Below, one piece after another: positions 5,099 through 39,491 of a stretch of DNA of 64,000 bases. Numbering within the stretch: the first letter of the stretch is position 1; every line of letters begins with the position of its first letter. Under the pieces are notes generated by a model. That model was not told the origin of the DNA, ran no database searches, and saw only the letters and a list, made by a program, of their open reading frames with translations. Origin of the DNA: Candidatus Latescibacterota bacterium (GTDB taxonomy: Bacteria; Krumholzibacteriota; Krumholzibacteriia; WVZY01); contig CAWBQK010000011.1 in assembly GCA_963791045.1 (NCBI GenBank), positions 192,001 through 256,000 of the forward strand, written 5' to 3'. A program made the position numbers and the translations under genes.

Positions 5099-6774
5099 TC
5101 ACTCAAGCAGGACGATCTTGCGGGTCGAAACGCCTCGGGGTGATTTCAAACGGAGAAAATAAACACCCGTTCCGACTCGCTGTCCTCGTGAGTCGCGGGC
5201 GTCCCAGGTGATGGTGTGGTCAACGCGTGTTTGCGGCTTGTTGACGAGGGTCTTTACCAGGCGGCCCTGGACATCGTACACCGCGAGCACGACGGGTCCC
5301 GGGGCGGGAGTGGTGTAAGAAATCGTGGTCGAGGGGTTAAACGGATTCGGGTGCGCGCGGAGGTCGTTCGCCGCGTGCGCCGGGGCGTCGTGGATACCCA
5401 CGGCGGTGTTCCCAAGTTTGACGAGGTAGACGTCTTCCTCCCCTGTGCATGTCATCACACCGCCGCCGAAATCGATGTCGCCCTTGAATCCTCCGGCGGC
5501 GATGATGTTGTTTGACGGGTCGATCGCCATCTCCTTGCCGAGTTGATATTCTGCGTCACCGTAGTGTTCGCTCCACAAGTGGTTGCCCGCGGTATCGAAC
5601 CTGGCCAGAAATGCGTCGAAGACACCGGTGCAAACGTGGGGGCCGCCGCCGAAGTCGGCGCTTTTCCAGAAATGCCCCGTCAAAATCGTGTTCCCCGAAT
5701 CGTCGAAAGCGACACTCGTTCCTTCGTCGAAGCCCGAGTCGCCGTAGACGGCACTCCACATATGCGCCCCCGTGGAGTCGAACTTCGCGAGAAAAATATC
5801 GCCGTGTTCGACGTTGCTCAACGGGCCGCCGCCAAAATCGACGGTCCCTCTGATATATCCGGTCAATGCGATATTGTCGCTCGCGTCGCAAGCGACATCG
5901 GTGGCGCCATGCGACCCGGGGTCGCCGAACACCTGGCTCCAGATGTGATCTCCATCTTGGGAGAATTTTGCAAAAAAATGTCACAACCACTGTGGTCACC
6001 AAGGAGCGGGCCGCCACCCAAGTTGATTTCGTCGTGAAAAACCCCCACGACAATTATGTCGCCGGCGCCATCAACCGTGACCGCGGTGCCGCGCTGGTGA
6101 TCGGTCGAGCCGAACGACTGGCTCCAAACGTGGTTGCCGTCAGGGTCGAACTTCGCGGCGAACGCGTCGGTGTCGTCGACGCAGGTCAAGATGCCGCCGC
6201 CAAAGTCAACCTCGCCGACGAACCAACCCGTAATGATGATATTGTCTGAACCGTCTATGGCGAGGTGTTCAACGTTTTCGTCGTCGAGTAGGCTGCCGTC
6301 GAATCGTTTGCTCCAAAGGTGATTGCCCGCCGGATCAAATTTTGCGACGTAGATGTCGAGCCCGCCGCTTGTTGTCAGTTCTCCGCCCCCAAAATCGGCT
6401 TTGTAGTGCATGTGGCCGATGAGGATCACATTGCCCGCCGAGTCGAATGCGACGCCCGTTCCGTATTGATAGTCATAGTCACCGAACTTTTTGCTCCAGA
6501 GATGATTGCCATCGGAGTCAAACTTTGCGAGAAAGATATCAAATTGGTCTTCCCACAGCGAACTCGTCAGGTTGCCTCCGCCGAAATTCACCTTTCCCCA
6601 GAAGTCACCGGCGATAATGATATTCCCGTTGGCATCGGTGTCGACGCCCTTGACGGTCTGGAGGTTTGTGTCTCCGTAGCTGTAGCTCCACATGTGCGGG
6701 GGGAAATCGGCGTGGGCCGTATAAGGCAATATAATGACAAGAGTTAACGAGATAAGGATTGTGAGGCACCGCAT
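5099..6774 (-). CDS. Secreted beta-propeller repeat protein with C-terminal FlgD-Ig/T9SS-like sorting domain (frameshift near 5970)
   Basis: Signal peptide; repeats 'DFGGG.L...DIFLAKFD.DGNHLWS..FG' in ORFs 5863..6774 and 5099..5932; tail PNPFNPSTTISY...GVYFLRL. Confidence 0.85.
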
Positions 6775-6835
6775 AGGAATCAGCGTCCGGTCAGAGGAAT
6801 AGCGAACTGCGGTTCATCAATCTAATTATAGCACT

Positions 6836-11956: not shown

Positions 11957-12032
11957 CAGTTTCCTCGCAATTGTTAGTTATCCCCTTGGGAGCAAACGCT
12001 GTTAGCCGGCGCTCTCCTGGTTCGCTATGGAG

Positions 12033-17567: not shown

Positions 17568-18234
17568 TTATGCAAGTACACGAATCGTAACAATGCCGAG
17601 GCACATAAGTACGAGACCAAACACGATTACGATGATCGACTTCCGGTTGCGCGATACAACGTCGGGACCTTTGTCCGGTTGATAAAAATTGAAGCTTCGC
17701 TCGACAAGCAGTTCCCCCGGCGGATGCTCGACGACGAGTGTGTACTTTCCCGGGGGCATGTCCCTGAATTCGAGATCGTCGACAATCGGGTAGAGCGTCC
17801 AGTGGCCCGCGGGCGAGATATGACGATCTGTCCGGCCGGGTGAACTCGGATTCGTCGATGACCCGGCCCTCGGGGTCATACCATCTGAAGATGAATGTTA
17901 CGGGTTCCTCTCGGATATTCTTGACGGTGAGCCGTGCGGATATTTTGTGAGACGAGAGGCCGTCGCGCATCGCAACCATCCGGACGACAGATTCGTACAT
18001 ATATCCGTCATAGCTTCTTTTCTGTGTCTGGCTCTGGAGATCGAGTTTTGCGGTCATATCGCACCGCTGAATGTTTCGGCGGGTCGGAACCCGGCGGGCG
18101 CTCGGATCGATCGTGGGCGGCGTGTAATTTTGCACGACGAGGACCCGGCCATTCGGCGGTTCCGCATTCACCGATTCGAAAAGAATGGGGACGATAAGTA
18201 CGAAGATTACAAGCCACAACCAGTGCCCGCGCAT
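17568..18234 (-). CDS. Exported protein with C-terminal membrane anchor (frameshift near 17820)
   Basis: Signal peptide MRGHWLWLVIFVL...; Ig-like FRWYDPEG segment continues in ORF 17568..17879 (PPGKYTLVV...; TM IIVIVFGLVLMCLGIV). Confidence 0.6.
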
Positions 18235-18306
18235 ACGATCCTCCAGGGGAAAAACCGCGCGACGTCCGTGCCGGGATCGCCTATATACGATTCGTGGACA
18301 GGCGTT

Positions 18307-18321
18307 GCATCTTCCATGCCA
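18307..18321 (-). promoter_or_regulatory. sigma54 promoter
   Basis: Minus strand TGGCATG-GAAG-ATGC, about 70 nt upstream of ATG 18234. Confidence 0.6.
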
Positions 18322-18425
18322 TCTTGCGCCCCGCCAATGGGATGACGTTTCTGGTTTTCAATGCGAAATCCGTGGGGTACAATCGCTTCAAAACTACCCA
18401 AACAAGCACTCAAGGAGGCGCTTCA

Positions 18426-20959
18426 ATGAGACTCCCCCGGCAAAATCTGCCCCCCGTCATCGGCGGATGTTCGCTCTGCTCGCGGCACTCATTATCGTCG
18501 CCGGTACGGCGGTCGTCAGCACGGCAAGCAACTACGGGCCAATTCCGTCCTACTACGATCAACTCCAGTACAACCTGACCGGGCCGGGCACCCGGGCCAC
18601 ATCCATCAGCGGATATGCGAACCCGGCTTTTTACAGCATGATGCCGGGAAGCGAACTCAACTATTCGTGGACGGGTGAAGACGAGTTAAAAAACTGGGGA
18701 CTCTTTCTCGGCGGAACGAACGCCGGGTTCGGAATGGTTCGAAGCGATCTGCCGGTTGGCGACGGTGTCTATGCCGGTGTTTACGACTATCGGGTCGCGC
18801 TCTCCGGGGGGACCAGGAACGCTACGGTGGGGGTGAGTTTTGGCTGGTCGGGAGGCGACAAGGATCTCGTCGGGCGCAGCCAGGTCATCCAGGTCGGCGC
18901 CGCCCAGCGATTCGGCCGTTATGTCTCGCTGGGGCTCGTGGGTAATTTTGCCACGCAGGCGAGCTACCAGTCGGGCTTCTTCGATATCGCCGTACGTCCG
19001 ACTGGAAAGCAACTTCTAACACTTTTTGCCGATTACGAACTACCAAAGGGACTTGCGGCGTCGGACGCGCCGTGGAGTGTCGGCGCCATGGTGGATGTCG
19101 GGCCCGGGCTTCAGCTCACCGGACGTTACTTCGAGAGCGAGGAGTGGTCGCTCGGCATCGGGTACGCCTTCGACGTATTTGGATTCACCGGTGCGCCGCG
19201 TTTCAACAAGGACAACAAGAGCGACCGCACCATCTACCAGATCCGCACCGGGTTTGCCCAGCGTGATGTCTTGACCGAGACTCTCCAGGAAGACAAAACC
19301 TACGTGTCGATGAATCTCAAGGGGCCGGTCAGCTACCGCGCGTACCAGTATTTCGACAAGCGCAAGCCGCTCTCCGTTATCCTTGCCGATCTTGAACACG
19401 CCAAGAACGATCCCAAGGTGAAGGGAGTTGCGATCAACCTGTCCGGCACGGTGATCTCGCGCGGCAAGGCCTGGGAGATTCGTGAGAAGTGCGCGGACCT
19501 TCAGGCGGCGGGCAAGCACGTGGTCATTTATGTCGACAACATGGGGATGACGGAATATCACCTCGCCAGCGTGGCCGACAAGATCGTTATGGATCCCGAG
19601 GGCATGGTCATGCTTCCCGGATATGTTATGGGCCGGACGTTCGTCACCAACCTTCTCAAAAAGCTCGGTGTCGGCGTTGATGAATGGCGTTTCTTCAAGT
19701 ACAAGTCCGCGGCGGAAGCTTTCACGAGGGAAGACATGTCGGAAGCCGACCGCGAACAACGCCTCGCGATCATCGAAGATACATATGAGACGGTCCGCGC
19801 CGAAATCACCGCCGCGCGGAATAAGAGCGATGCGGATTTCGACAACTGGATAAATAATGAAATTATGTTCAGCGGCAAAAAAGCCAAAGAAATGGGGCTC
19901 GTCGACGAATTGGGTCGTTGGGACAAGGTCAAGGAAGTGATCGCCGTACTCGAGGGCGAACAGAAGCGTTTTGTCGGCAGGGACGAACTCGCCGGCAACC
20001 GTTATAAGGATGACCTCTGGGGCGAGGATCCCAGGATCGCCGTCGTATATGGTCTCGGCGCGTGCGCGATGGATACGGGAATCAAAGCGCGCCAGCTCGA
20101 GAAGGTGTTCAACGGGCTCGCCAAAAGCCGAAATGTCAAAGCGGTCGTATTCCGTGTCGACTCGCCCGGCGGCGACGGGATGGCGTCGGATGTCGTTGCA
20201 GAGGCGCTGCGAAAGTGTGCCGAGAGAAAACCCGTTATAGTGAGCCAGGGTGATGTTGCCGGTTCCGGCGGGTATTGGATTTCGATGTACGGGACCAAGA
20301 TCTACGCGCTGCCGACATCGATCACCGGATCGATTGGCGTCATCGGCGCGTGGGTGTGGGATGAAGGCCTGGGCGAAAAGATCGGCCACACATCCGACCA
20401 CGTCAAGGTGGGTGACCACGCCGATTTCGGTTATGGGATCAGACTCCTTCTCGGTGGACCGATGCTTCCCGAGAGAAACCTCACGACCGAAGAACGTGAC
20501 CGGGTCAAGGGGCAGATCCTCGATTTCTACGACGTGTTTGTCGAGAAGGTGGCGACCGGACGCAAGATGCCCGCCGACGATGTCAGAGAGATCGCGCAGG
20601 GTCATGTGTACAGCGGCACGCGCGGCAAGGAAATCGGACTCGTCGATGAAATCGGCGGCTTGGATGCCGCGATCAAGGCGGCATGGAAAATGGCGGGAAT
20701 CCCCGATGATGACCGTGTCAAGATCGTCGAGTATCCGAAGCTCCCGCCATTCCACATTAGCCTTGGCGGCTCGCCGATTCCGATACGGATGCTGGCCGGA
20801 TTGTTCGGCGGCGATACCGACATGGCCGAAGATGAAGAAGCGCTTCTCAATCCCGAGTGGTCGTATCTTCGCGCCGTGGCAAACAGCCCCGGCCGGCCCT
20901 TGTTTATGCTTCCGCCAGAGCACTATATTTACGAAGCGCAGTTCGGCGGAATGAGGTAA
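18426..20959 (+). CDS. sppA: Signal peptide peptidase SppA (S49, two protease domains) with N-terminal beta-rich extension
   Basis: YHLASVADKI, KYKSAAE, RVDSPGG, AGSGGYWIS, ITGSIGV, AQGHVYSG..GLVDEIGG. RBS AAGGAGG with ATG 18426 is out of frame with the main ORF (likely C-run indel; alternative ATG 18467); promoter TTTTCA-17-TACAAT at 18355-18383. Confidence 0.9.
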
Positions 20960-22357: not shown

Positions 22358-23059
22358 TTAAAGTTGAGCGATCGAACACTGTATAAATGCATAGACAGCG
22401 TGTCCGGCCGCGCAAACCGCTATGCATTGGAGATATCCGCCGGGCGCGTACAGACAGAGATAAGCACAGCTGATTCCGCCCGCGACCATGCGTTCGCTGA
22501 TGCACCGAAGCCACTGTCGCCATGAGATTCTCGCTGCCGCCGGATCGATGTCAGCGGTGCACGCGGTTGAAGGCGGCCCGCTCAAGCCGATCCATACGTC
22601 ATCGCCGATCTGTTCGAAATCATTCCCAGGCGCCTCTTTTGAAAAGGTCAGCGTGACGGGAACGACGACTTTTCTATCGATGCCGTGGAGACAGAAGAGA
22701 TATACCGCGTCGTGGCTGGGATCTGTCGTGTTCTCCATGACGAGTGTCGTAATCTTTACTTCTCCACCGCCATCTCTTTCGCCTTCGACATAGAAGGAGT
22801 ACTCGGGCGTCAGTGTATACCCCGCTTTTTCGAAGCTTTCGATTTCGGCGGTGACCGCGGGGTCGGTCAGAGCGTCTTCGAGCGATTGAATTGTGTGCGG
22901 GTTCTTCGAGTCGAAGAACGCTGCGGTTATCCCATCCTCCTCGGTTACAATGTCCGGTGTTTTTGTGACGGCAGGTCTCACCGTCGACGTGTCCCGCTCG
23001 TTGCAAGCGAAACACAAAAACATCACTGGTAGAAACATCCACACGAACCGTTTCATCAC
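22358..23059 (-). CDS. Lipoprotein with C-terminal six-Cys hydrophobic peptide domain (halocin C8 / bacteriocin-precursor-like)
   Basis: RBS GAGGAGG; lipobox CFAC; acidic body; C-terminal C-x11-C-x3-C-x9-C-x3-C-x11-C. Confidence 0.75.
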   Translation of the reverse strand: MMKRFVWMFLPVMFLCFACNERDTSTVRPAVTKTPDIVTEEDGITAAFFDSKNPHTIQSLEDALTDPAVTAEIESFEKAGYTLTPEYSFYVEGERDGGGEVKITTLVMENTTDPSHDAVYLFCLHGIDRKVVVPVTLTFSKEAPGNDFEQIGDDVWIGLSGPPSTACTADIDPAAARISWRQWLRCISERMVAGGISCAYLCLYAPGGYLQCIAVCAAGHAVYAFIQCSIAQL

Positions 23060-23255: not shown

Positions 23256-23270
23256 GCATGATGAGTGCCA
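23256..23270 (-). promoter_or_regulatory. sigma54 promoter of the lipoprotein / small membrane protein pair
   Basis: Minus strand TGGCACT-CATC-ATGC. Confidence 0.65.
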
Positions 23271-23477
23271 CTCGGAGGGATGTTGTATTCTGTTGGTAGA
23301 TAGGTGGTTGCGCGGATGGCGTTGATTTCAATGGAAATAGTGCGCGATGGAGCCAGCGGCGGGGAGCGTGTATACTCGTAGAGTAATCGCGATTGAAGCC
23401 TGTTGTCTGATTTCACCGAGTGTCGACTTATTGACACCTTTTGGAGCAGCGCCGACAAACCGAAAGGATGGGCTCTT

Positions 23478-27229: not shown

Positions 27230-30200
27230 GTGATGGCGTCTCCAACCCCTGATTTTCCCCGATACGAAGTGCTCACGCCCCTGGGCGAGGGCGCGGTAGC
27301 GACCGTATTCAAGGTGCGTTCGTCGAAAGACGGCTCCATCCGGGCGCTCAAGGCGCTCAAGCCGGAGCAGGCCGAGACGGAACGGGCCATCGCGCGCTTC
27401 GAAGACGAGTACAGGATTCTGAGCAATCTCCATCATCCCAGCCTCCCAGATGTTAACGATTATGGTGTGGCGCCGGACGGCACGCGGTTCATCGTCATGG
27501 AATATCTCGAGGGCGAGCCGCTCGACGAGTATCTCGCCGCGCATCCCGAGGATTTCTGGACGCTTCTTTTTCAGATGAATGAGGCGCTCGCATTCATCCA
27601 CGAACACGATCTTCTTCATCTCGATCTCAAGCCGGGGAATATCCTCGTCCGTAGAAGCCGCGCGTTTGGCGAGCGCGAGATGCCGCTCGTCATGCTCATC
27701 GACTTTGGGCTCAGCTACCGCCGTGAGTCCGGCGGCAAGGTCAAGCTCGTCGGAACGCCGGGGTACATGTCGCCCGAAGTTATTCGTGGAGAGGAGAACA
27801 TTACCCGCGCCGCCGATTATTACTCGCTCGGTGTCATTCTCTACGAACTTACCGAAGGCCGGCTGCCTTTTGCCGGAAGCATGCATGACATCCTCCGCGC
27901 GCATCTCACTCGCAAGGTGACCTTCGAGGCGAGGAAGGTCGAGTTTGCGGAGCTTGTTCCCTGGATCGAGAATCTCATGGCCAAAGAGCCGCAGGCGCGG
28001 CTGGCGGCATTTCAAGATTATCAGCGGACGATGGCGGCACGGATGGGGGATGACGCGGCCGAGATGGAGCGGGTGTTTGCGCTTGGTTACATCGATTCGC
28101 TCGGACTTGTGGGAAAGGAAGAGGCGTGGGACGAGCTCCGAACCTGGGCGGAAAAGCTCGCCGCCGCTGTTGAGTCGCGATCGACGGGTGTGCCGGCGGG
28201 TTCCGGTGAGGCCGCCGTGGCGGTACCGGATCTTGATGTCCCGGATCCCGACAGTGTTTTGAAGGGAAGCGTCACCGATCTCGAAAAACGGATCCAGGAG
28301 GATCTGCTCGCGAGTGCTGCCGTTCGCGAGAAAACCGAGGGCCCTATTGCGGAAATCCCCCGTGTGTTGGCCGTGTCCGGGCCGCCCGAGAGTGGGAAGA
28401 CCCACGTGCTCGACACGCTTGCGACGGAGATTCGGGTTCGAGGGATGCAGGTATTGCGGCTCGGTGAAGATAGTGACTACCCCACCATCGTTGGGGACGC
28501 GGGGAAGAAATCACAGAAGCCTTCCAGTGCCGTCGATCCGGCGGCACTTACCACAGACCGGTTTGTCGCGGGGTGGGAGAAACTCGTGTCGCTTGCCGAG
28601 GGGGCCGGTGCTGTTCTCGTTGCTGACGACCTCACGCGGCTTAGCGGCGAGGAACGGGACTTTTTGGAGTACGTGGGCAAACGGCTTGGCCATGTCGTGT
28701 CCGAGGGGACCGAGCCCAATCTATTTATTATTTGCGTAGGGAAATCAAAACCCGTCCGAGAGGTTCTTCGACCAGCGTTGATAGGTGATGGCGCGTTTGC
28801 GTCGATCGAGGTCCCGCCGCCCGGGACCGATGATGTCGAGGCAATCTCCGAGAGGTTCCGCGGGCATCTCTCCGGCCGCGCCGAGCAGCAGTCGCTCGAA
28901 GTGTTCCTGCGGAAACACCTCCAGTCGAGTACCGCACTATATGCGTCTTTGAAACAGGGAATATCCGAGGATGCGCTCGTACATCGGATTGGCAAGTGGG
29001 CATTTCACGAGAGCCGGGCGAGTGCGATCGAGCTCACCAAATCTTCCGTTGAATATTACGAGAGTCTTTTTGAAGAGCTTGCTGATAACGCCAAAGATCT
29101 TGTCGGTTGGCTTGCCTGTCATCCGCAGGCTCTGACTGTCGATGAGTTAGCCCAGGTGTCTGACCTGTCCGTGAGTCAAATCGTGGTCGCGAGCGAGGCA
29201 CTTCTGCCGTACCGGATCATCGATGTCGCGGATACCGACAAGGGTCGACGGATCGAGATGATCAGCGATCACGTCCGCGGTGGGATGTACAAAGCCCTTC
29301 GGAAAAAAGACCGGAATCGTATTCACAACCGGTACATCAGCTACTTTGGCGATCACGGAGATGACTCGATTGCCTACTTTGAAATGATGGCGCATCACTT
29401 CGCGAAGGTCCGCCGGGTTCGAGAATCACTCATCATGCAGGTACGTGCGGTGACGCGCGCGCGGCGGGATCGGGACGTATTCGCGCTCCGGCGGTTGTGT
29501 AAGGCCGGGATCGAGTATGTTCGCCGCCTCAGAAGCGCCGAGTGGAAAGACCACAAAGAGTCCATCGAAAGATACTTCATCAAGCAATGGATCAATGCCG
29601 AATGGATGGTGTCGAATTACAAAAATTTGATTGAAATTATTCAGCGAAACCGTGAAACAACTGGTGGGAACATCCCGATCGGTCATCGATATCGCTATGC
29701 AGTTGCGCTCGAACGAACTAATAAGCCACAATTGAGCGTAGAAATAGTTGAGGAGGGGCTCAAAGAACTTCGTGATTGGCCTTGTGAGACTTATCATCGA
29801 TTGTTGATTCAAAGAGCGAATATTCTAACAACTTTTGAACAGACAGATGATTCTTTGGGGATACTGGAGAAGGTCGATCTCACTTGTATTTCAACCGAAG
29901 ATCTCGCCCGTTACTACATCATAAAAATGATCAACTATGATAGAAGCGGAGAGCAAGAATCGTACGCAAAATATTTGGAGAAAGCTCGGGTTACATCCGA
30001 TCAACATGGGCATATTGAGCATCTTGTGAGGGCTCACTACAGCGAGGGACAGTCCTTGCTGAACCAATCTCGTTTTCAAGAAGCCAAGAGCATAATTGCT
30101 TCGTCTGTGAGGCTTGCGCACAAGACCCGCTATTATCGTGGGTTGTGCATTATGTACTTTTTGGGGAGTGCCGTGTTCTTTGAAGAGGGCAAATTCCAAC

Positions 30201-31090
30201 GAGCACTTTACTATTTAGATAAATCAATGAAGATAGCCGTAGACAACGGCTTGCTGACGGACGCGGATGAATTCGGTATCAGATATGCAATGATTTATCA
30301 GAACGTGGGTCTCTGGGGTGACGCTGTTAGTAGTTTAGAATCGATCAGAAAGCGTACGGATACAAGGGATGCCCTTGAACATCACTTTTATGCAACAGTC
30401 CTGTTGTTCAACATCTTGTCGTCTCTTAACTCTCGATTAATATCATCAGTCGCCGACCGACTTGAAACCATGATAGAGAGAATTAAAGCGCGCTACAGGG
30501 CTGCGGTATATTACCAAGTTCTTGGCGAGTTCTTGAAAACAAAGGATCGTCTTGACGAAGCGATCGGTGCCCTGGAGAAAGCCAAAGAGCTTTACGCGGC
30601 CATCGGATATAGTGACGATCTTGCCAGGACTGATATTGTCGTAGCAATGATCCGAATTGAACAACGCGAGTTCGATGAAGCCCGGAACATTATCGACCAT
30701 GTGGGGTCTCAAATTGGCGACATGGAGTCCAATAATGTGAGAGGGCAGTACTTATTAGTTGAGTTGCTGTATCATCAAGCTGCGAATACAAGTAAAACTG
30801 ATTTGTTCAGGTGGATAGGCCGCTGTGAAGATATCATGAATCAAGTGACCGAGATGGACCTGTTGATGAAACTCAATGCGAGCCTTTTTAGAGTTTTAGT
30901 AAAAGTGGGAGAGGTAGGGCGAGGACTAGAATATTTCCATCGTTACTATAGCCAAATGAGAAAAATTGTGTCTGGACTCCAGAGGAGTGAGTTAGTTGAC
31001 GATTTTAGCAATAGTCCAGAATTCTTAGGCTTGGTCGAAGAATATAGGGGGGTCACAAAAAACGGCCCAGGTCATTCATCTGGTGACTGA
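27230..31090 (+). CDS. Ser/Thr kinase - P-loop ATPase - TPR multidomain protein
   Basis: GEGAVA, ALK, HLDLKPGN, DFG, GTPGYMSPE; Walker A GPPESGKT; Walker B VLVADD; long helical-repeat C-terminus. Confidence 0.88.
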   Translation: MMASPTPDFPRYEVLTPLGEGAVATVFKVRSSKDGSIRALKALKPEQAETERAIARFEDEYRILSNLHHPSLPDVNDYGVAPDGTRFIVMEYLEGEPLDEYLAAHPEDFWTLLFQMNEALAFIHEHDLLHLDLKPGNILVRRSRAFGEREMPLVMLIDFGLSYRRESGGKVKLVGTPGYMSPEVIRGEENITRAADYYSLGVILYELTEGRLPFAGSMHDILRAHLTRKVTFEARKVEFAELVPWIENLMAKEPQARLAAFQDYQRTMAARMGDDAAEMERVFALGYIDSLGLVGKEEAWDELRTWAEKLAAAVESRSTGVPAGSGEAAVAVPDLDVPDPDSVLKGSVTDLEKRIQEDLLASAAVREKTEGPIAEIPRVLAVSGPPESGKTHVLDTLATEIRVRGMQVLRLGEDSDYPTIVGDAGKKSQKPSSAVDPAALTTDRFVAGWEKLVSLAEGAGAVLVADDLTRLSGEERDFLEYVGKRLGHVVSEGTEPNLFIICVGKSKPVREVLRPALIGDGAFASIEVPPPGTDDVEAISERFRGHLSGRAEQQSLEVFLRKHLQSSTALYASLKQGISEDALVHRIGKWAFHESRASAIELTKSSVEYYESLFEELADNAKDLVGWLACHPQALTVDELAQVSDLSVSQIVVASEALLPYRIIDVADTDKGRRIEMISDHVRGGMYKALRKKDRNRIHNRYISYFGDHGDDSIAYFEMMAHHFAKVRRVRESLIMQVRAVTRARRDRDVFALRRLCKAGIEYVRRLRSAEWKDHKESIERYFIKQWINAEWMVSNYKNLIEIIQRNRETTGGNIPIGHRYRYAVALERTNKPQLSVEIVEEGLKELRDWPCETYHRLLIQRANILTTFEQTDDSLGILEKVDLTCISTEDLARYYIIKMINYDRSGEQESYAKYLEKARVTSDQHGHIEHLVRAHYSEGQSLLNQSRFQEAKSIIASSVRLAHKTRYYRGLCIMYFLGSAVFFEEGKFQRALYYLDKSMKIAVDNGLLTDADEFGIRYAMIYQNVGLWGDAVSSLESIRKRTDTRDALEHHFYATVLLFNILSSLNSRLISSVADRLETMIERIKARYRAAVYYQVLGEFLKTKDRLDEAIGALEKAKELYAAIGYSDDLARTDIVVAMIRIEQREFDEARNIIDHVGSQIGDMESNNVRGQYLLVELLYHQAANTSKTDLFRWIGRCEDIMNQVTEMDLLMKLNASLFRVLVKVGEVGRGLEYFHRYYSQMRKIVSGLQRSELVDDFSNSPEFLGLVEEYRGVTKNGPGHSSGD

Positions 31091-31100
31091 CCTGGGCGTT
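31058..31100 (-). terminator. Terminator hairpin between convergent genes, overlapping the kinase 3' end
   Basis: GCCCAGGTCA (31065-31074) / TGACCTGGGC (31088-31097); A run on the left gives a U tract on the minus strand. Confidence 0.6.
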
Positions 31101-31134
31101 AGGTTAAGTTCATATGTTTATCTGGTTGAGCTAT

Positions 31135-31684
31135 CTAGCCGGCGATGTTGCCTCCGTACTTCGAAAAGTGGTGCAGCAAAGCTTTTGCCCGGTTTGGATG
31201 ATCGAAGGGAGATTCTCGATTCGTTCCCATCGTTCTGTCGAAGGGTTGTACCATTTGATCACGGTGACCACCCCTTTTTTTCGGCGGCTGTATTCTCCAA
31301 CTTCATTGTCATTATTACAGGCTCGTTGAAGTGAATGCCTTCGGGGCCGAACTCCACGACGAGATTCGATTTGTCGACCATGGCCATTGTGATGTAGGTG
31401 TCTTCATCCAACGCGCCAGGAGAAAAATCGAGTGTCACTCGTTCGTTGGAGATCGTCCCGCCTGACTCGGCGGAGATCAGAGATCCCTGCACTTTCACTT
31501 GGGAAAAAAGGGCCGGGTCACTGGGGGCAGATGCGATGCCGATGAAGTCCGGTTCAAACATGGCGCCTCCCGGACCGTCAACAGGCGCCAGCACTGAACC
31601 ATCCTCACAACCTATTGTGGCAAGAAGAAGGGTTAGGCAAGCAAGCAAGGCAAAGGATTTGAGTGTGTGACGGAAGCGGGACAT
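31135..31684 (-). CDS. ZU5-like lipoprotein (frameshifted near 31275 and probably near 31205)
   Basis: Lipobox TIGC; ISAESGGTI, LDFSPGAL, EFGPEGIHFNEPV; other frames continue IKWYNPSTERWE ... LLHHFSKYGGNIAG* with stop at 31135. Confidence 0.7.
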
Positions 31685-31736
31685 CTCTTCTACCCCCTAA
31701 GTTGACTTCCCAAAACGTCAGGCGATGAACAGTAAG

Positions 31737-31751
31737 GCAAGCGGGGGACCA
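31737..31751 (-). promoter_or_regulatory. sigma54 promoter of the ZU5-like gene
   Basis: Minus strand TGGTCCC-CCGC-TTGC. Confidence 0.6.
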
Positions 31752-32489
31752 TGCTCACGCGTGGGCCAGCAGCCCAGTTGTTTTTTTGAAAAGTTGAATT
31801 GTCCAATGCCTAAGAGGGCGAGGTCTATGTGCTTGTGGTGAAACAGGTTAGGGCGCGGGTCGTCCCGTCTGTATGTCAGAGTTGGAATTGTCCAGCGGTG
31901 AAATACGAAGCCCGGGTTTAAAGCGAATTCTTTTGAGTTGGGGCTTGGAACGATTCCACGGATGTAGATGACCTGGAGTTTGATTTGTAACCCGTTAAAT
32001 CACAGGCGTTTTTCGGGTTTGTGGCGGCCTTGCGCCACTGTGGTGTTTTTTTAGCTGTGAACAGAACCTAATTACCCATTGTTTCCAACTATCCCAAAGG
32101 GTAACCGATTGCCTCCGATCGAATCGAAAGGAGAATTCGTATTGTTTCCAATGATTCCTCCATTGCGAGCTTCAGAGGTCTGTCGACGTGAGACGAGCGA
32201 AGATAAATCGCAGATATTGATTCGAAGAGATTTGGCTTATTTCAGCAAACGAGAGTACTCAGCAATTTTCTTTGCGCGGAACACAGAGAACTTTGGTCCC
32301 CCCTGGGGGTCGACGTGCTGCACATTCAATCCGCATCGCTGCCTCCGCATAGTCAGACCAAGTGAATCCCAGCAGATGTTGTGTGAGGCAACGAGCCCAA
32401 ATCGTTCCCTCACACAACACGTTCAGCAAGTTGACGCCGAAAAACAAGCCGTTGTTTCGACGTCAATGTGTTAGTCGGATCTCCAATGG

Positions 32490-32504
32490 GCAAGCTGCGT
32501 ACCA
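32490..32504 (-). promoter_or_regulatory. sigma54 promoter driving an orphan transcript
   Basis: Minus strand TGGTACG-CAGC-TTGC; AT-rich IHF-like tract upstream; palindrome TGTCAATATATTGACA at 32654-32669. Confidence 0.7.
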
Positions 32505-32653
32505 CGCTTAAGACTTCGTTAACTTGTGTGTTTTCAATGAGGTCATGGTTTTAAGGTACGGATTCGAGAATTTTTTATGTGACAAATTTTCTTTACACTA
32601 TCGTATGTTAAGGGATTGTAATTGATTCGCTGAATCTATTGGCACTGACCGGT

Positions 32654-32669
32654 TGTCAATATATTGACA
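32654..32669. promoter_or_regulatory. Perfect palindrome, candidate sigma54-activator binding site
   Basis: TGTCAATATATTGACA (TGT-N10-ACA), about 150 bp upstream of the 32490 promoter. Confidence 0.6.
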
Positions 32670-32794
32670 CCGTTTCTCCAATCTTGGCAAAAATCAATTT
32701 AACGGTTCATGTTATAGGCGTTGATGAGCGCACCCAAACTGATCGGCCAATATTGGGGCGTTAACTAGGCAGTTGCTCATTGTGCAAAATATTG

Positions 32795-32823
32795 TTGAGT
32801 AGAAGGTTACAGTCTGATATAAT
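32795..32823 (+). promoter_or_regulatory. sigma70-type promoter of the peptide / activator operon
   Basis: TTGAGT-17-TATAAT with extended TG. Confidence 0.65.
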
Positions 32824-33061
32824 TCAATCCTCAGGGTGTCCTTCGATAGAGCTTTGACTTGACGGATATAAACGGATTACCAGAAATAAGCTGGGTTATT
32901 CGCATGTTGAAGCGACCACCACAATTGACGAGACTTATGAGTACGGTGCCCAACCGGCTGAAGCTCATCTCGTTTCCGCAAACCTGCGGTTCACAATCAG
33001 AGTCTGTCCGATCCTGTCCTTCCCCCGGTTATCTCGTGTTAGTCAAAAGAGGTGTTACACG

Positions 33062-33379
33062 ATGATTTCGAAATTTGTACGGATATCGACAGGTGCCTTT
33101 GTGTGCGCTTTTATGACGATGTTCCTAATAACGATCTCAGGTCTAATCCCAGTCGATGACGCCTTGGCTAGGGACACAGAAACCAAGCCCTACGTTGTTC
33201 CGGGTGACGCAGATGGAATTGGGGGATACAAGGGCTATGAATTCGTTGAGGAGCCCTCAGGCGTTACAGGGAGTGCGCATGGAAAGGTGATGCCAGACCT
33301 AAGAGAGAAAAACATCTTGATTTACTGGACATGCTCCTCGCCCTGGCTGGCAAACCTTTGCATTTTTGTGACACCATAG
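33062..33379 (+). CDS. Small secreted protein, candidate signalling-peptide precursor
   Basis: RBS AGAGGTG; signal peptide ending ALA; central GDADGIGGY motif; hydrophobic Trp-containing C-terminus; stops 10 nt before the TPR gene ATG. Confidence 0.7.
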   Translation: MISKFVRISTGAFVCAFMTMFLITISGLIPVDDALARDTETKPYVVPGDADGIGGYKGYEFVEEPSGVTGSAHGKVMPDLREKNILIYWTCSSPWLANLCIFVTP

Positions 33380-33389
33380 GTTGCGGTTA

Positions 33390-36300
33390 ATGACAAGACC
33401 AATAACACACCAAGAGCGCCTTCAGACTGAGTCCATTATTAATGCGGATGATAAGTTCCGCGCTATTTTGGAGTGTCCAGACTTTTTTCAAGATGTACCG
33501 GCATACAGTAGGGCAAGAAACTTAGTGGAGCGGCTTGTCGAATTGAATCAACTGCACTACCTTGATATCGCGAGCATGAATCTGGCGTTACTGCGCGTAC
33601 AACGGATGCGGTCTAATCTTGATCAAGAACAAGCCAAAAAAACTCTCGATAGAATCACCAAAAAGGTCGGTGCTTCAACTCCGCAGCGTTATCAATGCGC
33701 ACTTCTGAGGGCGGAAATTGGCTTGTTCGGCCAGGGTGACTTTGTTTATGCGATGAGAGAGTATGAAAGATTGGAAAAAGAAATACGATCTACGAATCAG
33801 CACTTTTTGTATGGTCTTGTTGTAAACGGTATGGGGCTTGCGCTTTCGGCGTTGGGAGACGAGGCGTCAGCAGAGGATCGGTTTCATGATGCGATGAGTG
33901 TATTCAGACGTATGGATAATCACATGCAATACGCATACAGTCTGAACAATTACGGTGTTTTGAAGAAAAAGTGTTGTCGATATGCAGAAGGGGAACGAGC
34001 TCTAAAGAGAGCATTGAAAATATTCCGATCGTTGGGAATGCTGGAAGGGCAAACGCTCTGTTACAACAATTTGGGGGTTGTTGGGCTGAAGACTGGCGAG
34101 TGGCAAAGTGCTCGATACTGTTTTGACAAGGCAATTCAATGTAAACGGGATCTGTCCAAAGGTGCTGTTGAAGACGACAATAGTTTTATTCGAAATTCGA
34201 GTATGATTGGCGAGATTAATCGTCTCCATCTGGATTTATTGAAGAGACAGTTTGAGGGGATAGAAGGACGATTTGTTGATCTAGTAGCAGCCGCCAGGAC
34301 GCTTGATAACTCAAGGTATGTGGCTTTGCTGCAGGAATTCTTGGCCGACTATAAGATGGAAGTACAAGAGCATTCTGAGGCCAAAGAATGTCTCCAGAAG
34401 GCATTGTCGACGACCCAAAAAATAGCACCCACAAGCGACGTTATGACGGAGGTCAAACGTCGACAGGCCCAACTCCATCTCCTGCAAGACGAACCAGAAG
34501 ATGCCAAACGAGAAGCGCTCGAGTGTATCCGACTGTGTATCAAGATTCGAGACAAACATGAGATGGGAGCTGCGCTCCGGATTCTTGCGGAAACGAATTT
34601 TAAACTCGGCCTAACCCAAAAAGCTGTCAATGCTTTCGAAGCCAGCATCAACACACTTAAAAGCATCCACGAGTGCTACGAGTTGATGCGAAGCTGTATT
34701 TCCTACAGCAAGTATCTGATCGAAACCAAAAGCGATGATGCTGACATCTATCTTCTCGAAGCAAGACAGCTCTGCAAGAAGCTCAAAATCGACTTTTTCA
34801 CCGCTCAGGTTCTGATCCTCTATAGCAAATATGATTTCAACAATGGAGACTATGGTATCGGCGAGGAGCAATCTGAAGCTGGCAAATGAGTATGCAGACA
34901 GACTGGACCCGAATGACAAAAAGGCGATTGCCCCATTGATCCGCGATTGGTACAAGACGCTGGAAAAGGAAATCCTCCAAACAAGCCAGGAGTCTGCAAA
35001 GAGACTCAAATCCCTGGGAAGAATCTACGAAGAGGCGAGATTTCCTCTGGAAGAACTGAAGCCCGAGCTCGCGACAGAAGTTGCTCGAAACGTCGGGGCC
35101 GAGTGCCTGTTCCTCGCAAAGCAACAAAACAGCGGCTATCGAATCCCCCTCAAATACAATCTGTCGATCAACGATGCGAAGCAGATCCTCCGTCGACAGC
35201 TAAGATGTGACGCGAAGACCCTGTTCAAGGGAAGCGATCCCAGATTCTGTCCGATGATGAACGGCAAAACGCTTGTATCGGTGCCGGGACAGACCGGCCA
35301 GGGTTTCATTCTGTGCGCGGTGGTCCCGGACAAAAAGTCATTTACACCAAAGGAATTGGAGTTCTTGTTCGCAAGTGTGGAGGCAATGGAGCGGGTTGCG
35401 ACGGAGATAGGCGACGTTCCTTACCAACTGGACACGACAGATTTTCTGGACAGCGATGAGGAGACGCTCGCGCACCCGGGAGGCTCTTTTGAAGAGATCA
35501 TCACGATCGACCCAGAGTTGATCAAGGTCATCCGACTGGCCGAACGTGCGAGCCAGAGTTCCGTCCCGATACTTCTGGAGGGCGAAACAGGTGTCGGCAA
35601 AGAACTGTTCGCCCACGCAATCCACGAGAATAGCCGCCGGAAAGAAGGCCCCTTCATTGCAATCAATGCGGGGGGCGTGCCGCTGAATCTGCTCGAGAGC
35701 CAACTCTTCGGACACGTGAAAGGCGCATTCACGGACGCGGTGTCGGACCGCGTCGGACTGGTAGAGGAAGCAAAGGGTGGCACGCTATTCTTCGATGAGG
35801 TGGGCGATATGTCGGAGGAACTCCAGGTCAAATTGCTCCGCCTGCTGGAGAACGGGGAGTTTCGCCGTCTCGGCGAAAACGATGTTCGCCACACAAACGT
35901 CAGAGTGGTATCGGCGACCAACAAGAATCTGGAAGATCGAATCGCAAACGGCCTGTTCCGGGAAGACCTGTACTACAGGCTCGCAACGGTGAGTTTCAAG
36001 ATCCCGCCGCTGCGCGAGCGCCGGCGCGATATCGAGTTCTTGCTGAGACATTTTCTGACAAGAGGCATCGAGAAGCTGGGATTCTCCCGCCGCCGCCTTA
36101 ACGTCGATATGAAAGCACTGGAAGCCTTCGAACTTCACTCATGGCCTGGCAACGTTCGCGAACTCAGGAACGAGATCATGCGAATATTCTCACTCATCGG
36201 TGATGGCGAAGTGATACGGTTTGGAATGCTTTCAGAGAGGATAAAAGACGCCTTCAGATCAGGGAATGAAAGCGGCATTCTCACGCAGCGCGTGGAACGT

Positions 36301-36426
36301 TTCGAACGCCGGCTCATTCTAAAGGCGCTGGAAGACAACTCCTGGAACCGCTCCAAGACCGCCGAGCAAATCGGCATTCCACGGACGACCCTCTTATTCA
36401 AAATGAAAACCCTTAATATAATGTAG
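33390..36426 (+). CDS. TPR-domain sigma54-dependent transcriptional activator (TPR - linker/GAF-like - AAA+ - Fis HTH); single frameshift near 34856
   Basis: TPR motifs (YSLNNYGV, CYNNLGVV); removing one G in GACTATGGTATCG joins NNGDY to VSARSNLK; GETGVGKE, ESQLFGH.KGAFTDA, FREDLYYRL, WPGNVREL, C-terminal HTH. Confidence 0.88.
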
Positions 36427-36756: not shown

Positions 36757-36977
36757 CCCGTTCCTCTTTCACGCCCGATCGAAACCTGGCTGGAAAACAT
36801 CACCACAGCGAAGCAGACTGGATTGAGTGCCTGAGAACCTATTATATCGTATAAATTGTGATAATTCCAGAAACGTTTGAGCAAATGTTGTCGAGCTCCA
36901 CGTGGTATAATTATAGATTGAGGCAGATGGGTCGCGCATCGATGGATCGCAAAACGGCTCTCTCGATTGGAAAGACC

Positions 36978-39491
36978 ATGACCGGCAGACACCTGCAAGC
37001 CCTCATCTTTTTCAGTATCACCCTTCTCTTGCTTACGTCCGCTCTCGCCGCGGCGGGCGAATACACCGAAACATTCACGAACACGACCCACTTGAACCCC
37101 GGGCAGACGACCGCCGTCTGGGACACAGCGTCGGGACAACTCACGATGCCCGTCCCCCCGATCCTCATCGGGAGCGCCGCGACCGGCGGGCACGCGTACG
37201 CCGTCAAGATCTGGGGTGACCGCGCCTATGTCGCCGCCGGGACGGCGGGGCTCGAGGTCTTCGACATCACGGATCCCTCGGCGCCTTTCATTATAGGAAG
37301 CTACGACACGCCCGGCGAGGCGCTCGATGTCGCGATAAACGGCGGTATCGCCTGCGTCGCCGACGGCGACTCGGGACTCGTGATACTCGATGTGACCGAT
37401 CCCACGGCGCCGGCGCTCTCGGGGCGGTTTCAGACGGGCGGGCGCGCGCAGGGCGTAGTCTGCGAGTCGGTCTTTCAGGCCTGGGTGGCGAGCGGAACGG
37501 CGGGTTAGAGATCGTCAGAATCATTGACCCGGCGAACCCGATCCTTGAAGCGAGCCACGACACGTCCGGTGATGCCGCGGCGGTCTTTTACGCGGGGAGC
37601 CGGGTGACGGTGGCCGACGGCGCCGGCGGGCTCGTGCTCGTCGATGTCACCGACCCCTCGAGTCCTTCTCAAATCGGTTCGACGATGACCGCCGAGGCGG
37701 GCGACGTCTTCACCGATGGCAATTACGCGTATGTCGCCGACACGGCGTACGGACTGCGTGTGTTCAATGTCTGGGCGTACGGACTCAATATGCGAGGGAC
37801 GTGCCCGACACCGGGGACGGCGAAAGGTGTTTTTGTCGCGGGCACGCGGGCGTATGTTGCCGACGGCGACGCGGGACTTCGTGTGATCGATGTGTCGGAC
37901 CCGTGGACCCCGGTTCCCGTGACGGACCGCGACACCCCGGGCGACGCCTGCGATGTCGTCGTCGACGGCGAAACGGCCTATGTCGCCGACGGCCCGGCGG
38001 GGCTCCAGGTGTTCAGTCTTCGCTCGCCGGTTGCGCCCACGCTCCTTGGCACATACAACACGCCCGGCGAATCCCAGGCGGTCACTGTAGTGGGTGAAAC
38101 CGCCTATGTGTCCGATCATGACTTTGGGCTGCGTGTGATCGATGTCGCCAGCCCCTCGGGCCCGTTCGAGATCGGAAGCTACGTGCCGTCGTGGTACACC
38201 AATGCCGCTGCGGTTTCCGGCGGCTACGCGTATCTCGCGAATTCGTACAACGGGCTCACGGTCGTCGATGTGAGCATGCCCCCGAGCTTTCCGTTCGTTG
38301 GGGGCCGCGGTACGGTGGGACGGGCGACCGATATCGTGGTGGGAGGGATCGTCTCGCACACAGCCTGCGGGGACGGCGGCTACGCGCTGAACGTCATCGT
38401 GGACCCCACCAACCCAGGACAAGCCGCATACTGCAGTACGCCGGGATGGGCGGAGGGTGTCGACTACGCGGGGAAATACGTTTACATCGCCGACTATGAC
38501 GAGGGACTCCAGGTAATCGATCTCACACCGCTTGCCGGTCCCGAGATCGTGGGGAATTACGACTCATCGGGGCGGTCGATGGACGTCGCCGTCGCCGGTG
38601 ATCACGCGTACGTCGCCGATCTCGACGACGGGCTAAAGGTGATCGACGTGTCCGACGCGACGGCTCCGATACTTGTGGGAAGCTACACGGAAAGTCGCGC
38701 GTTTGAGATTTGCGTTTCGGGAGATTACGCATTCGTCGCGGCGGGTCAATCACTAGAGATGTTTGACGTGAGCGATCCCACGTCGCCCGTTTTTCTCGGG
38801 AACCACACGACACCCGATGTCGGCGCCGGGGTATTCGCACTCGGGGATTATGCGTATTTCGCAGCGGGGTACACGGGGCTCGAGATCTACCGTGCTTTTC
38901 AAAGTGATGCCGTGGGCGGTGTTCTCGTCGGGCAATCGCTCCCGATAGACGACACCGAAGAGTCAATCGGGTACGCTCGCCTCACGGCGACGCAGACCGA
39001 TTCGGTTGCCTGGGAGCTTAGCGCCGACGGCGGCGCGCACTGGCATGCCGCCACACCCGGCGGCGGCTGGGCCACGCTCACCCCCGGGAGCGATCTTCTC
39101 TGGCGGGCGGCGCTCACGTGGTCGACACCCGGCGTTTGCCCAACCGTGTCGGAGGTGACAATCGAGTGGCTACCCGAGGATGCGTCGGGTGTTGGAGACC
39201 CCGCGCCCAGCGGTTGAATTCAAACTGCATCAAAACGTTCCCAACCCGTTCAACCCATCGACGTTGATTCGTTACGAGCTCGCCGCGCCGTCGTGGGTCG
39301 ACCTTCGCGTGTACGACGCGACGGGCGCCCTGGTGCGCGTCCTCGTCGCCGATGACCGGCCGGCGGGCCCGAATGAAGCCCACTGGGACGGTAGAAATCA
39401 ATACGGCGCGCGCACCGCATCGGGCGTTTACTTCTATCGATTGAAAGCGGCGGGGTTCGAGATGACGCGGAAGATGGTGCTGATCGAATAG
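36978..39491 (+). CDS. Secreted LVIVD-repeat beta-propeller protein with FlgD-Ig/T9SS-like C-terminus (frameshifted)
   Basis: AYVADG..GL.VIDVSDP repeats across ORFs 36858..37508 and 37604..39217; sorting domain in 39180..39491 (QNVPNPFNPST...SGVYFYRL). Confidence 0.85.

Follow-up and report, generated by a model that had tools for sequence, protein, structure and literature searches.

Sigma54-type transcription activators usually respond to phosphorylation or to small ligands, and sensing of peptides through tetratricopeptide repeats (TPRs) is known from Gram-positive bacteria and their phages. A gene pair of Candidatus Latescibacterota bacterium (phylum Krumholzibacteriota in GTDB) raises the question whether the two can be combined. 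The pair lies in a 64,000-nt stretch of DNA (assembly GCA_963791045.1, contig CAWBQK010000011.1, positions 192,001 to 256,000 of the forward strand), which is referred to as the window; all coordinates below are window positions. Its first gene is a small open reading frame (ORF; 33062-33379, + strand) for a predicted exported protein of 105 aa, and its second gene, on the same strand, encodes a sigma54 activator with a TPR sensor. Comparison with related genomes indicates that the pair is a conserved, previously undescribed two-gene regulatory module, and we consider it very likely that the small protein and the TPR activator are functionally coupled. For the mechanism that we hold most likely among those considered, in which a fragment of the exported protein is re-imported and bound by the TPR sensor as in the RRNPP systems, we estimate a probability of roughly 35%.

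The small ORF, the activator gene and their conservation

The ATG of the small ORF is preceded at 7 nt by a Shine-Dalgarno-like AAGAGGTG, and the translation reads as an exported acidic mini-protein. Residues 1-36 (33062-33169) form a signal-like N-terminus, recognised in the translation by K4, R7, a hydrophobic stretch and an ALA directly before R37, and cleavage would be expected at ...DDALA|RD. Further downstream, the small-protein alignments delimit a conserved acidic-Gly-aromatic motif, G48-D-A-D-G-I-G-G-Y-K57 (33203-33232), in which G48 is invariant and D49 and G55 are almost invariant (alignments A2 and A4). A spacer of Gly, Ser and acidic residues then leads to an aromatic/hydrophobic C-terminal tail (I85-P105, 33314-33376), and 10 nt separate the stop codon from the ATG of the activator at 33390. 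A preliminary description of this DNA, made from its letters alone, had reported the 105-aa ORF with its signal-like start, ALA, GDADGIGGY core and hydrophobic tail, ending 10 nt before the downstream gene, and all of these features were recovered, with cleavage as a prediction.

Near-identical DNA covering parts of the stretch was found in marine sediment metagenomes (five DNA runs from two studies; no RNA run is listed among these runs). We compared the contigs of four of the sediment runs with the window, of which positions 34715-35077, the frameshift site described below among them, lie outside their coverage. Probably derived from other strains, these contigs show seven differences within the small ORF, none of them an indel, so that the frame is intact; the motif and the tail are untouched. 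Between more distant small ORFs, the ratio of non-synonymous to synonymous substitution rates (dN/dS) ranged from 0.15 to 0.48 in 11 measurable pairs (three orthologue pairs were saturated), and the three-part design of the protein persists at 17-33% identity. This conservation, together with a dN/dS below 1, is more than chance would leave, and on the strength of these sequence comparisons the small ORF is very probably a real protein-coding gene.

The activator had been described as a single protein of ~1000 aa built of TPRs, an AAA+ domain with a GAFTDA loop and a helix-turn-helix (HTH). These domains are present, but in the window they are divided over two frames. The TPR sensor part occupies frame 1 (33390-34889, +; ORF 33381/33390-34889, 502 aa), ends at a stop codon that arises from the frameshift and matches Pfam TPR_12 (4e-18), TPR_2 and others, and the remainder of the activator occupies frame 2 (34855-36426, +), with a linker helix, a GAF-like domain, the AAA+ domain with GAFTDA, a lid and HTH_8. 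Specifically, the 531-aa ORF of the second frame (34831-36426) matches Sigma54_activat over residues 224-388 (9.5e-64), AAA_lid_14 over residues 395-476 and HTH_8 over residues 488-526 (3.4e-11). Alignment with intact relatives, whose activators are single open frames of 1004-1075 aa, places the break at one extra G in the GG at 34854-34855 (+): the window follows the relatives up to ...NNGDY and then departs from them, the second frame picks up in register at VSARSNLKLANEY, and removal of one G restores ...NNGDY-VSARSNL..., again in register with the intact proteins.

The part downstream of the frameshift aligns over its full length with six orthologues at 48-57% identity and keeps Walker A, Walker B and the arginine residues; GETGVGKE, GAFTDA and DE are all retained in the alignment, in which loop position 5 is D, G or N among the relatives. 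The TPR part is 28-38% identical to nine orthologues as aligned; in the search, its matches to nine orthologous activators have E-values of 1e-96 to 4e-50 and 31-41% identity. Because the sequence 3′ of the break aligns at full length with its AAA+ motifs kept, the frameshift is either recent or an assembly error, the latter being likely; a programmed frameshift was rejected, as the relatives are unshifted. The source genome is a metagenome-assembled genome (MAG) of 3.66 Mb in 21 contigs, 81% complete, and its assembly is rich in split genes and, it seems, in indels. The second TPR activator of this genome (contig C10) is likewise split, three other activator matches lie in frames of just 236-359 aa, and a solute-binding-protein gene on contig C13 is broken in three pieces. 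Just beyond the activator, a gene for an LVIVD-repeat protein with an FlgD_ig-type C-terminal domain also appears split (36858-37508, 37604-39217 and 39180-39491, +). Together, the split LVIVD gene, the short activator frames and the three-piece binding-protein gene point to many indel errors in the assembly.

As described before, a receiver domain is absent from the activator (Pfam scan), and the scanned ORFs, located between ~18 and 50 kb of the window, include no histidine kinase that could be its cognate. The translation of the activator shows neither a signal nor a transmembrane segment. Database names for TPR sigma54 activators are generic only, and the relatives are labelled as MAGs of Krumholzibacteriia or of Latescibacterota/Latescibacteria.

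The preliminary description had made its proposal depend on a signal-peptide ORF with a GD(A/P)D-like motif being conserved directly upstream of homologous activators, and such an ORF was indeed recovered for orthologues and paralogues alike. Eight of nine orthologous activators are preceded by a small ORF, one of which is cut by the start of its contig. These ORFs share a signal-like start, a GDxDGxGGY-type motif, a Gly/acidic spacer and a tail that is first basic and then aromatic. The gap to the activator measures 3-33 nt in this family, and in two loci the ORF overlaps the assumed activator start; gaps this short suggest translational coupling. Four sister-family orthologues have the motif directly behind an A-x-A site (...AFA|GDQEG..., ...ATA|GDRDN...), so that it would form the very N-terminus of the mature protein.

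A second, paralogous family of activators, ~25% identical in the TPR part, is present in nearly all relatives, where it usually follows an NtrC-type response-regulator activator. All 22 loci examined (L002, L019, L032-L051) contain a separate small ORF that lies 35-90 nt before the activator of this family; its translation starts with MKRA..., continues through a hydrophobic stretch, ...AKSP... and a Pro/Gly part to GDADDLAGIK or GDADGLSGLKG, and closes with a tail such as ...WWKFMLWIR. Since both families carry the small ORF upstream, the pairing predates their split. GC-rich stem-loops are located at or just after the small-ORF stop in L035, L039, L040, L043, L046 and L048; their sequences differ between genomes and show no clear U-run. 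The source genome itself holds a second module on contig C10 (locus L059, ~6400-12200), consisting of an NtrC-type response-regulator activator, a 99-aa small ORF and the frameshifted TPR activator. Two perfect sigma54 promoters, ~570 nt apart, lie 3′ of this activator. Behind them come two genes for unnamed proteins, one for a protein of 1161 aa that carries a type IX secretion tail, and one for a UPF0164 (PorV-like) protein.

The extent of the pairing was examined with a profile built from 28 small ORFs (alignment A4), which under-detects the window's own family because the second family dominates it. Among 201 genomes of Krumholzibacteriota the profile gave 49 matches in 42 genomes, and the genomes with a match made up 11/12 and 20/23 of the two nearest families, 4/12 of a third and few elsewhere. 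Thirty-nine of the 49 matches lie directly upstream of a TPR-activator match on the same strand and two lie at contig ends, while the other eight all precede, within ~40-100 nt, an ORF of 853-1041 aa with Walker A and a GAFTGA-type loop. A TPR activator is therefore located immediately downstream in all 47 assessable cases. Moreover, the small ORF was present in 7/7 of the more distant relatives found via the N-terminus of the activator, with motifs of the type ...SGDDDDYWDG... and Trp-rich tails. In all, the pairing spans at least seven GTDB families of the phylum and two anciently diverged paralogue families. Weak matches in Ignavibacteria and Bacteroidales were rejected as unrelated TPR proteins with no small ORF.

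When searched against 1.84 billion protein representatives, the same profile matched 97 clusters at E up to 1e-3 (58 at E up to 1e-10), and all 97 representatives are 65-136 aa long. A simple test detected a signal-like start in 87 of them, the remaining ones looking truncated at the N-terminus, and the pattern GDx[DEG][DGASN] occurs in every one. Anchored on GD, the logo reads G-D-A(55%)-D(86%)-D/G-L/I/V-A/S-G(88%)-I/L/Y/F-K/R(62%)-G, with K or R at +8 to +10 of the motif in 69/97. The middle part is composed of 18% G, 12% D and 10% S and has a net charge of about -5, and the tail has a mean net charge of about +2. At least three of the last 20 residues are aromatic in 91/97 representatives, WW occurs within the last 15 in 72/97, and 63/97 end on Arg. 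The motif starts anywhere between residues 19 and 92, but its distance to the C-terminus is fairly constant (38-65 residues, median 45). The WW stands at a variable distance from the stop and is absent in the orthologue family.

The 105-aa protein is, in this analysis, the founding member of an unnamed family of ~100-aa proteins. Pfam and NCBIfam searches with 11 small proteins returned chance-level matches only, none of which fits a family, and Rfam gave no match for 31000-33500 at E up to 1. The protein atlas held no usable match for the window's small protein; for the paralogous one it returned three unnamed ~110-aa clusters labelled Eiseniibacteriota, with scores of 0.84-0.85 that are below the trusted level. 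Three other identities were considered and rejected: a PEP-CTERM-type sorting signal (no PEP motif, and too great a distance between motif and tail), a lipoprotein (no Cys) and the precursor of a ribosomally synthesised and post-translationally modified peptide (no conserved modifying enzyme in the adjoining genes).

Two further genes of the window have counterparts near other modules. Upstream of the pair, a 1286-aa Ser/Thr kinase with AAA_16 and TPRs (STAND-like) is encoded at 27230-31090 (+); similar kinases adjoin the orthologous modules in genomes G023 and G030, and the surroundings of the G001 module include a TPR_MalT fragment. This kinase may be a second input to the same circuit. A 924-aa Peptidase_S49 (SppA-like) is encoded at 18185-20959 (+), with a 903-aa homologue directly upstream of the G030 small ORF and an S49 fragment ~8 kb upstream in G009, and is a candidate processing enzyme or merely a case of local synteny.

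Promoters, dyads and candidate targets

The source genome encodes rpoN (RpoN DNA-binding domain, 2.5e-65, contig C15) and holds 17 strong matches to sigma54 activators. Two sigma54 promoter-like sites, at 31737 and 32490, had been proposed as targets of the module. Both sites exist and both lie on the minus strand, and they fare differently.

The site TGGTACGCAGCTTGC (32490-32504, -) has one mismatch to TGGCAC-N5-TTGC, diverges from the small ORF and, as read from the sequence, may function as a promoter. It is supported by a perfect dyad, TGTCAATATATTGACA (32654-32669), located 150 nt upstream as a candidate activator-binding site (upstream activating sequence). No convincing ORF was found directly downstream of this site. 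Dyads of the form TGTC-N8-GACA also occur ~150-170 nt upstream of activator-adjacent sigma54 sites in G009 (exact), in G001 (one mismatch) and in the second module of the source genome (G000:C10; exact, plus an N10 variant). In the 64-kb window the dyad was counted twice, against 1.2 expected, and the second module is the only place in the genome where it is combined with a perfect promoter at this distance. Because the dyad was defined after being seen, this evidence is suggestive only. The second dyad of the window, TGTCGACTTATTGACA (23421-23436), lies 151 nt upstream of a sigma54-like TGGCACTCATCATGC (23256-23270, -) with one mismatch, which precedes a gene for a predicted lipoprotein of 233 aa (22358-23059, -). 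The spacing is as at 32654/32490, and this lipoprotein gene may be a second member of the same regulon.

The other proposed target site, TGGTCCCCCGCTTGC (31737-31751, -), has two mismatches and lies 53 nt (31685-31737) before the ATG of a predicted lipoprotein gene (31259-31684, -; 141 aa, LATIGC lipobox, weak ZU5 match). Its -24 and -12 elements and the 5′ untranslated region are conserved in G010, G012 and G002, and the site is probably the true promoter of this gene, a candidate sigma54-dependent target. In two of the three genomes that keep the site, however, no orthologue of the window's activator was found, so that it need not be the target of this activator. Sites of the quality of these two are not enriched in the window (53, against 51.5 expected from shuffles).

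When the intergenic region 31690-33061 was compared with 40 relatives, only its first ~65 nt, comprising the lipoprotein promoter and leader, were conserved, in three genomes. The ~700 nt following the 32490 promoter (32478-31760, -) contain no convincing ORF, have no Rfam match and are not conserved in relatives; they may represent an unknown RNA or a long leader that extends as far as the lipoprotein gene. Two copies of a direct repeat, GTTG(G)AATTGTCCA, are located at 31793-31805 and 31881-31894, ~45 and ~130 nt upstream of the promoter at 31737-31751 (-), and may be the site of another activator.

In other modules the sigma54 sites are placed differently. In the second family, perfect TGGCAC-N5-TTGC sites lie just 3′ of the activator, before genes for unnamed proteins, a type IX secretion cargo protein and a UPF0164 (PorV-like) barrel. 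In G009 and G001 (loci L053, 11991-16001, and L054, 11262-15618), a sigma54 site ~230 nt 3′ of the activator precedes a molybdenum-hydroxylase operon of the xanthine dehydrogenase family, with a CoxM-like FAD subunit and a fused 2Fe-2S/molybdopterin subunit, from which it follows that the presumed targets of the module differ between genomes. In the window and in three sister-family loci, a sigma54 site lies 560-860 nt upstream of the small ORF and points away from it.

Possible routes from the small protein to the activator

An intact activator of this kind comprises about 1010 aa, and its structure was modelled with AlphaFold2. For an intact orthologue of 993 aa (26-sequence alignment, mean pLDDT 84), the model places a TPR solenoid of 26 helices, or 13 repeats, at residues 1-490, followed by a long helix (496-537), a predicted alpha/beta GAF-like domain (541-657), a disordered link, the AAA+ core and the HTH. 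Foldseek matched the AAA+ core to NtrX, FlrC, ZraR, NtrC1, FleQ and LuxO at 42-46% identity and a TM-score of ~0.9. The window's own TPR part was modelled as all-helical (pLDDT 92, pTM 0.88). A search with the TPR model against representative structures had domain III of MalT as its best match (Z 27.1; 1hz4, root-mean-square deviation 3.6, 358 residues aligned) and gave Z scores of 26.8 for APC5, 26.0 for LGN, 25.4 for APPBP2, 24.8 for NprR-NprX, 24.6 for the phi105 Rap with peptide, 22.0 for AimR, 21.2 for RapI and 19.7 for PlcR-PapR; by fold, the TPR part is thus close to MalT, APC5, LGN and the RRNPP receptors to a similar degree. Pfam TPR_MalT matches also occur in orthologues. As modelled, the fold is of a ligand- or peptide-binding solenoid type, which is compatible with RRNPP receptors and does not single them out.

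Because the activator carries no export signal and the small protein is predicted to be exported, direct contact between the two needs either the return of a fragment or a meeting before export. The gene pairing, the conservation of the motif, the domain architecture, the presence of sigma54 and the promoters with dyads are established here, and the return of a fragment would build on them as follows. The small protein would be a tethered pro-protein, exported via its Sec-type N-terminal signal, from which a protease outside would free a fragment containing the motif, flanked by the signal-peptidase site or the variable spacer and by K/R. The fragment would re-enter through an oligopeptide permease and bind the TPR solenoid, and its binding would alter the assembly of the AAA+ domains into an active ring. 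At the TGTC-N8-GACA dyads, this ring would open the sigma54 promoters from which envelope genes, those for lipoproteins and type IX secretion cargo, are transcribed. The source genome encodes at least four family-5 solute-binding proteins of the oligopeptide type, which permit a possible import route; they are compatible with the return of a peptide and are no evidence for it. In favour of such a return stand a short, highly conserved motif between its flanking sites, a TPR sensor whose structural neighbours include the peptide-bound NprR, phi105 Rap and PlcR, and the adjacency of the two genes.

In this scheme we infer export, processing, re-import, binding and the sign of regulation. A number of points weigh against it. 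A returning peptide would face the two barriers of a diderm envelope. The activator gene is frameshifted in the window itself, and in one orthologous locus (G006) no upstream small ORF was recognised. Upstream of the small ORFs, no consistent -24/-12 match was found (300 nt at 29 loci; 400 nt in the window), and with no sigma54 site preceding them there is no obvious auto-induction loop. The TPR part is not specifically similar to RRNPP receptors either: its profile is nearest to designed consensus TPRs, kinesin light chain (KLC1, 1e-21) and LGN (4e-12) among PDB entries and matches Rap proteins more weakly (2.6e-7 and 3.4e-6), and Foldseek places the model nearest to LGN/Pins and APC5, with no RRNPP receptor in the top 50.

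The small protein itself adds to this list. Its conserved Trp-rich tail and the fairly fixed distance between motif and tail would be superfluous in a simple pro-peptide, and we know of no RRNPP pro-peptide with a conserved Trp-rich C-terminal tail. Pheromones usually diversify, whereas this motif is conserved; it is near-identical even between the two paralogue families of one genome (GDADGIGGYK and GDADDLAGVK), and likewise across the class, a sameness that would invite cross-talk. A predicted complex of the TPR domain with the small protein scored 0.00 in a run without controls and is no evidence either way. Of the RRNPP-like logic coupled to sigma54 that the preliminary description had proposed, the conserved pairing of a small exported ORF with a TPR regulator stands, while the likeness to RRNPP systems suffers from a motif that does not diversify and a TPR fold that is not RRNPP-specific. 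A still fuller reading, a counterpart of RRNPP systems in diderm non-Firmicutes in which a conserved acidic-aromatic peptide cleaved from a membrane-tethered pro-protein is re-imported, binds the TPR solenoid and gates the ATP-driven opening of promoters of envelope and type IX secretion genes by a sigma54 AAA+ motor, with two insulated paralogous circuits per cell, appears doubtful.

The composition of the small protein, with a signal peptide, an anionic spacer (net charge of about -5) and a cationic, amphipathic, Trp-rich tail (+2), might suit an envelope component that never touches the activator. It could be an acidic protein anchored at the membrane surface, it could bind cations, or it could give rise to a Trp-rich, membrane-active peptide that its anionic part keeps inactive until release, and it would merely be co-transcribed with an activator whose TPR part senses something else. 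A small ligand could bind to the GAF-like domain, the real input could be the Ser/Thr kinase with AAA_16 and TPRs found near several modules, and the hairpin that follows the small gene is what one would expect if a structural gene with high expression preceded a regulator with low expression. However, the adjacency and order of the two genes are kept in two paralogue families and across the class while other neighbours change, which is more than co-regulation usually preserves, and no assessable match among the 47 lacks the activator immediately downstream. We regard the absence of direct contact as somewhat unlikely.

Alternatively, the two proteins might meet before export, the TPR part capturing the unexported precursor by its tail, its acidic motif or both, so that export frees the activator or has the reverse effect; in that case the module would monitor secretion or the condition of the envelope and not an outside signal. 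Partners made together would be expected to be encoded almost contiguously, as they are in the orthologue family (3-33 nt). Solenoids of the LGN/KLC type, which are the best sequence (KLC1, 1e-21) and Foldseek neighbours of the TPR part, bind long acidic-aromatic peptides, and the motif of the small protein is likewise an acidic run followed by an aromatic or aliphatic residue, in some relatives ...DDDDYWDG...; the kinesin light chain and LGN/Pins are, however, eukaryotic cargo and polarity adaptors, and the likeness concerns the type of repeat only. The rather constant unit from motif to tail (~45 aa), the conservation of the motif in place of diversification, and candidate targets that encode envelope and secreted proteins all fit a captured precursor. 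On the other hand, Sec export is normally constitutive and fast, leaving a small cytoplasmic pool, and the genes of the second family lie 35-90 nt apart, often with a hairpin between them. A precedent is the TPR chaperone IpgC, reported as co-regulator of MxiE in Shigella (PMC10701871; bioRxiv 10.1101/2022.04.20.488988). By analogy with that system, a TPR module able to hold a hydrophobic secreted partner would link secretion to transcription; the present TPRs differ in being fused to the activator, the partner has a Sec-type signal, and no injectisome is involved. We regard capture before export as unlikely.

The small ORF could also act in cis, its translation, perhaps with an export-sensitive pause at the Trp-rich end, setting the level of the activator through translational coupling or the melting of the spacer hairpin, in a manner akin to secretion monitors or to TnaC-type attenuation. 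Its layout fits: as in SecM, MifM and VemP, from the class of monitoring substrates (PMC7897499; PMC10987492), an N-terminal export signal and a conserved, here aromatic, C-terminal stretch are followed directly by the regulated gene. The Shine-Dalgarno sequence before the activator start of the window is weak and the gap is only 10 nt. In the paralogue family, stem-loops start just past the stop codon or include it, and the folding z score of the spacers is -1.5 or lower in 8/16 and negative in 13/16. Against this, 3/16 spacers fold no better than shuffles and the hairpins leave the Shine-Dalgarno sequence of the activator uncovered. The tail is aromatic in 91/97 representatives and conserved in character, but it appears to be out of register with the stop, at a distance that varies for WW, which the orthologue family lacks. 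Moreover, the downstream gene encodes a transcription activator and not a Sec or YidC component, and the acidic motif and the TPR sensor are left unexplained. A role as leader is, in our judgement, distinctly improbable.

Finally, the idea that the small ORF is no gene at all and that a non-coding leader is being conserved might draw on the lack of a family name and the poor recognition of the sequence by the protein atlas, but it is scarcely credible given a frame, start and three-part design kept at 17-33% identity, a dN/dS below 0.5 and 97 independently predicted clusters, all of matching length.

Relation to known systems and meaning of the module

The RRNPP pairs (Rap-Phr, NprR-NprX, PlcR-PapR and AimR-AimP) share with the module a small ORF with an export signal, here a predicted one, that adjoins the gene of a cytoplasmic regulator with a TPR solenoid, and NprR-NprX, the phi105 Rap, AimR, RapI and PlcR-PapR rank fairly high among the structural matches to that solenoid (Z 19.7-24.8). 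The effector differs: it consists of a C-terminal GAF-like domain, a sigma54 AAA+ domain and a Fis-type HTH, whereas RRNPP regulators have an N-terminal HTH or the Rap bundle. The module is further set apart by its 13 TPR repeats, an upstream gene of ~100 aa, the conserved Trp-rich tail and the non-diversified motif, and its sequence similarity to Rap is weak (2.6e-7 by profile, against 1e-21 for KLC). Its TPRs may or may not share ancestry with those of the RRNPP receptors (Z 24.8 for NprR and 27.1 for MalT). Its host is a Krumholzibacteriota MAG and not one of the Firmicutes; RRNPP systems are described from Gram-positive Firmicutes and their mobile elements (PMC10075063). As its effector part and host range fall outside the definition, the module is not a member of the RRNPP class, although it may work like one.

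Among bacterial enhancer-binding proteins (NtrC1, ZraR, FlrC, FleQ, NifA, DmpR), the activator has the familiar AAA+ sigma54-interaction domain with Walker A and B, a GAFTGA-type loop, a lid and HTH_8, in a genome with rpoN. It differs from them in its sensor, a 490-residue TPR solenoid with a GAF-like domain and no receiver, and, in the window, in a frame broken by one base. Literature searches found no dedicated small exported partner gene for any described system of this kind. The solenoids of MalT domain III and STAND regulators provide the best structural match to the TPR model (Z 27.1), but the module has no NOD/STAND ATPase, its AAA+ domain being of the sigma54 type, and the MalT sensor takes a sugar inducer and not a peptide.

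The module thus joins a TPR-sensing sigma54 activator to a predicted exported partner of its own, an undescribed pairing: no description of such a pair was found in the literature, judged mainly by abstracts. Whichever mechanism applies, be it a returning peptide, capture before export or a leader, it would be a new route by which information on the envelope or the outside feeds into sigma54 transcription. Being small, the pair could be reconstituted with a reporter in E. coli, for which a candidate operator (TGTC-N8-GACA) and candidate promoters are in hand, and to our knowledge no genetics exists for Krumholzibacteriota. Kept as two ancient copies through a whole uncultured sediment phylum, the module would give access to the way in which these bacteria regulate their surface and type IX secretion genes.

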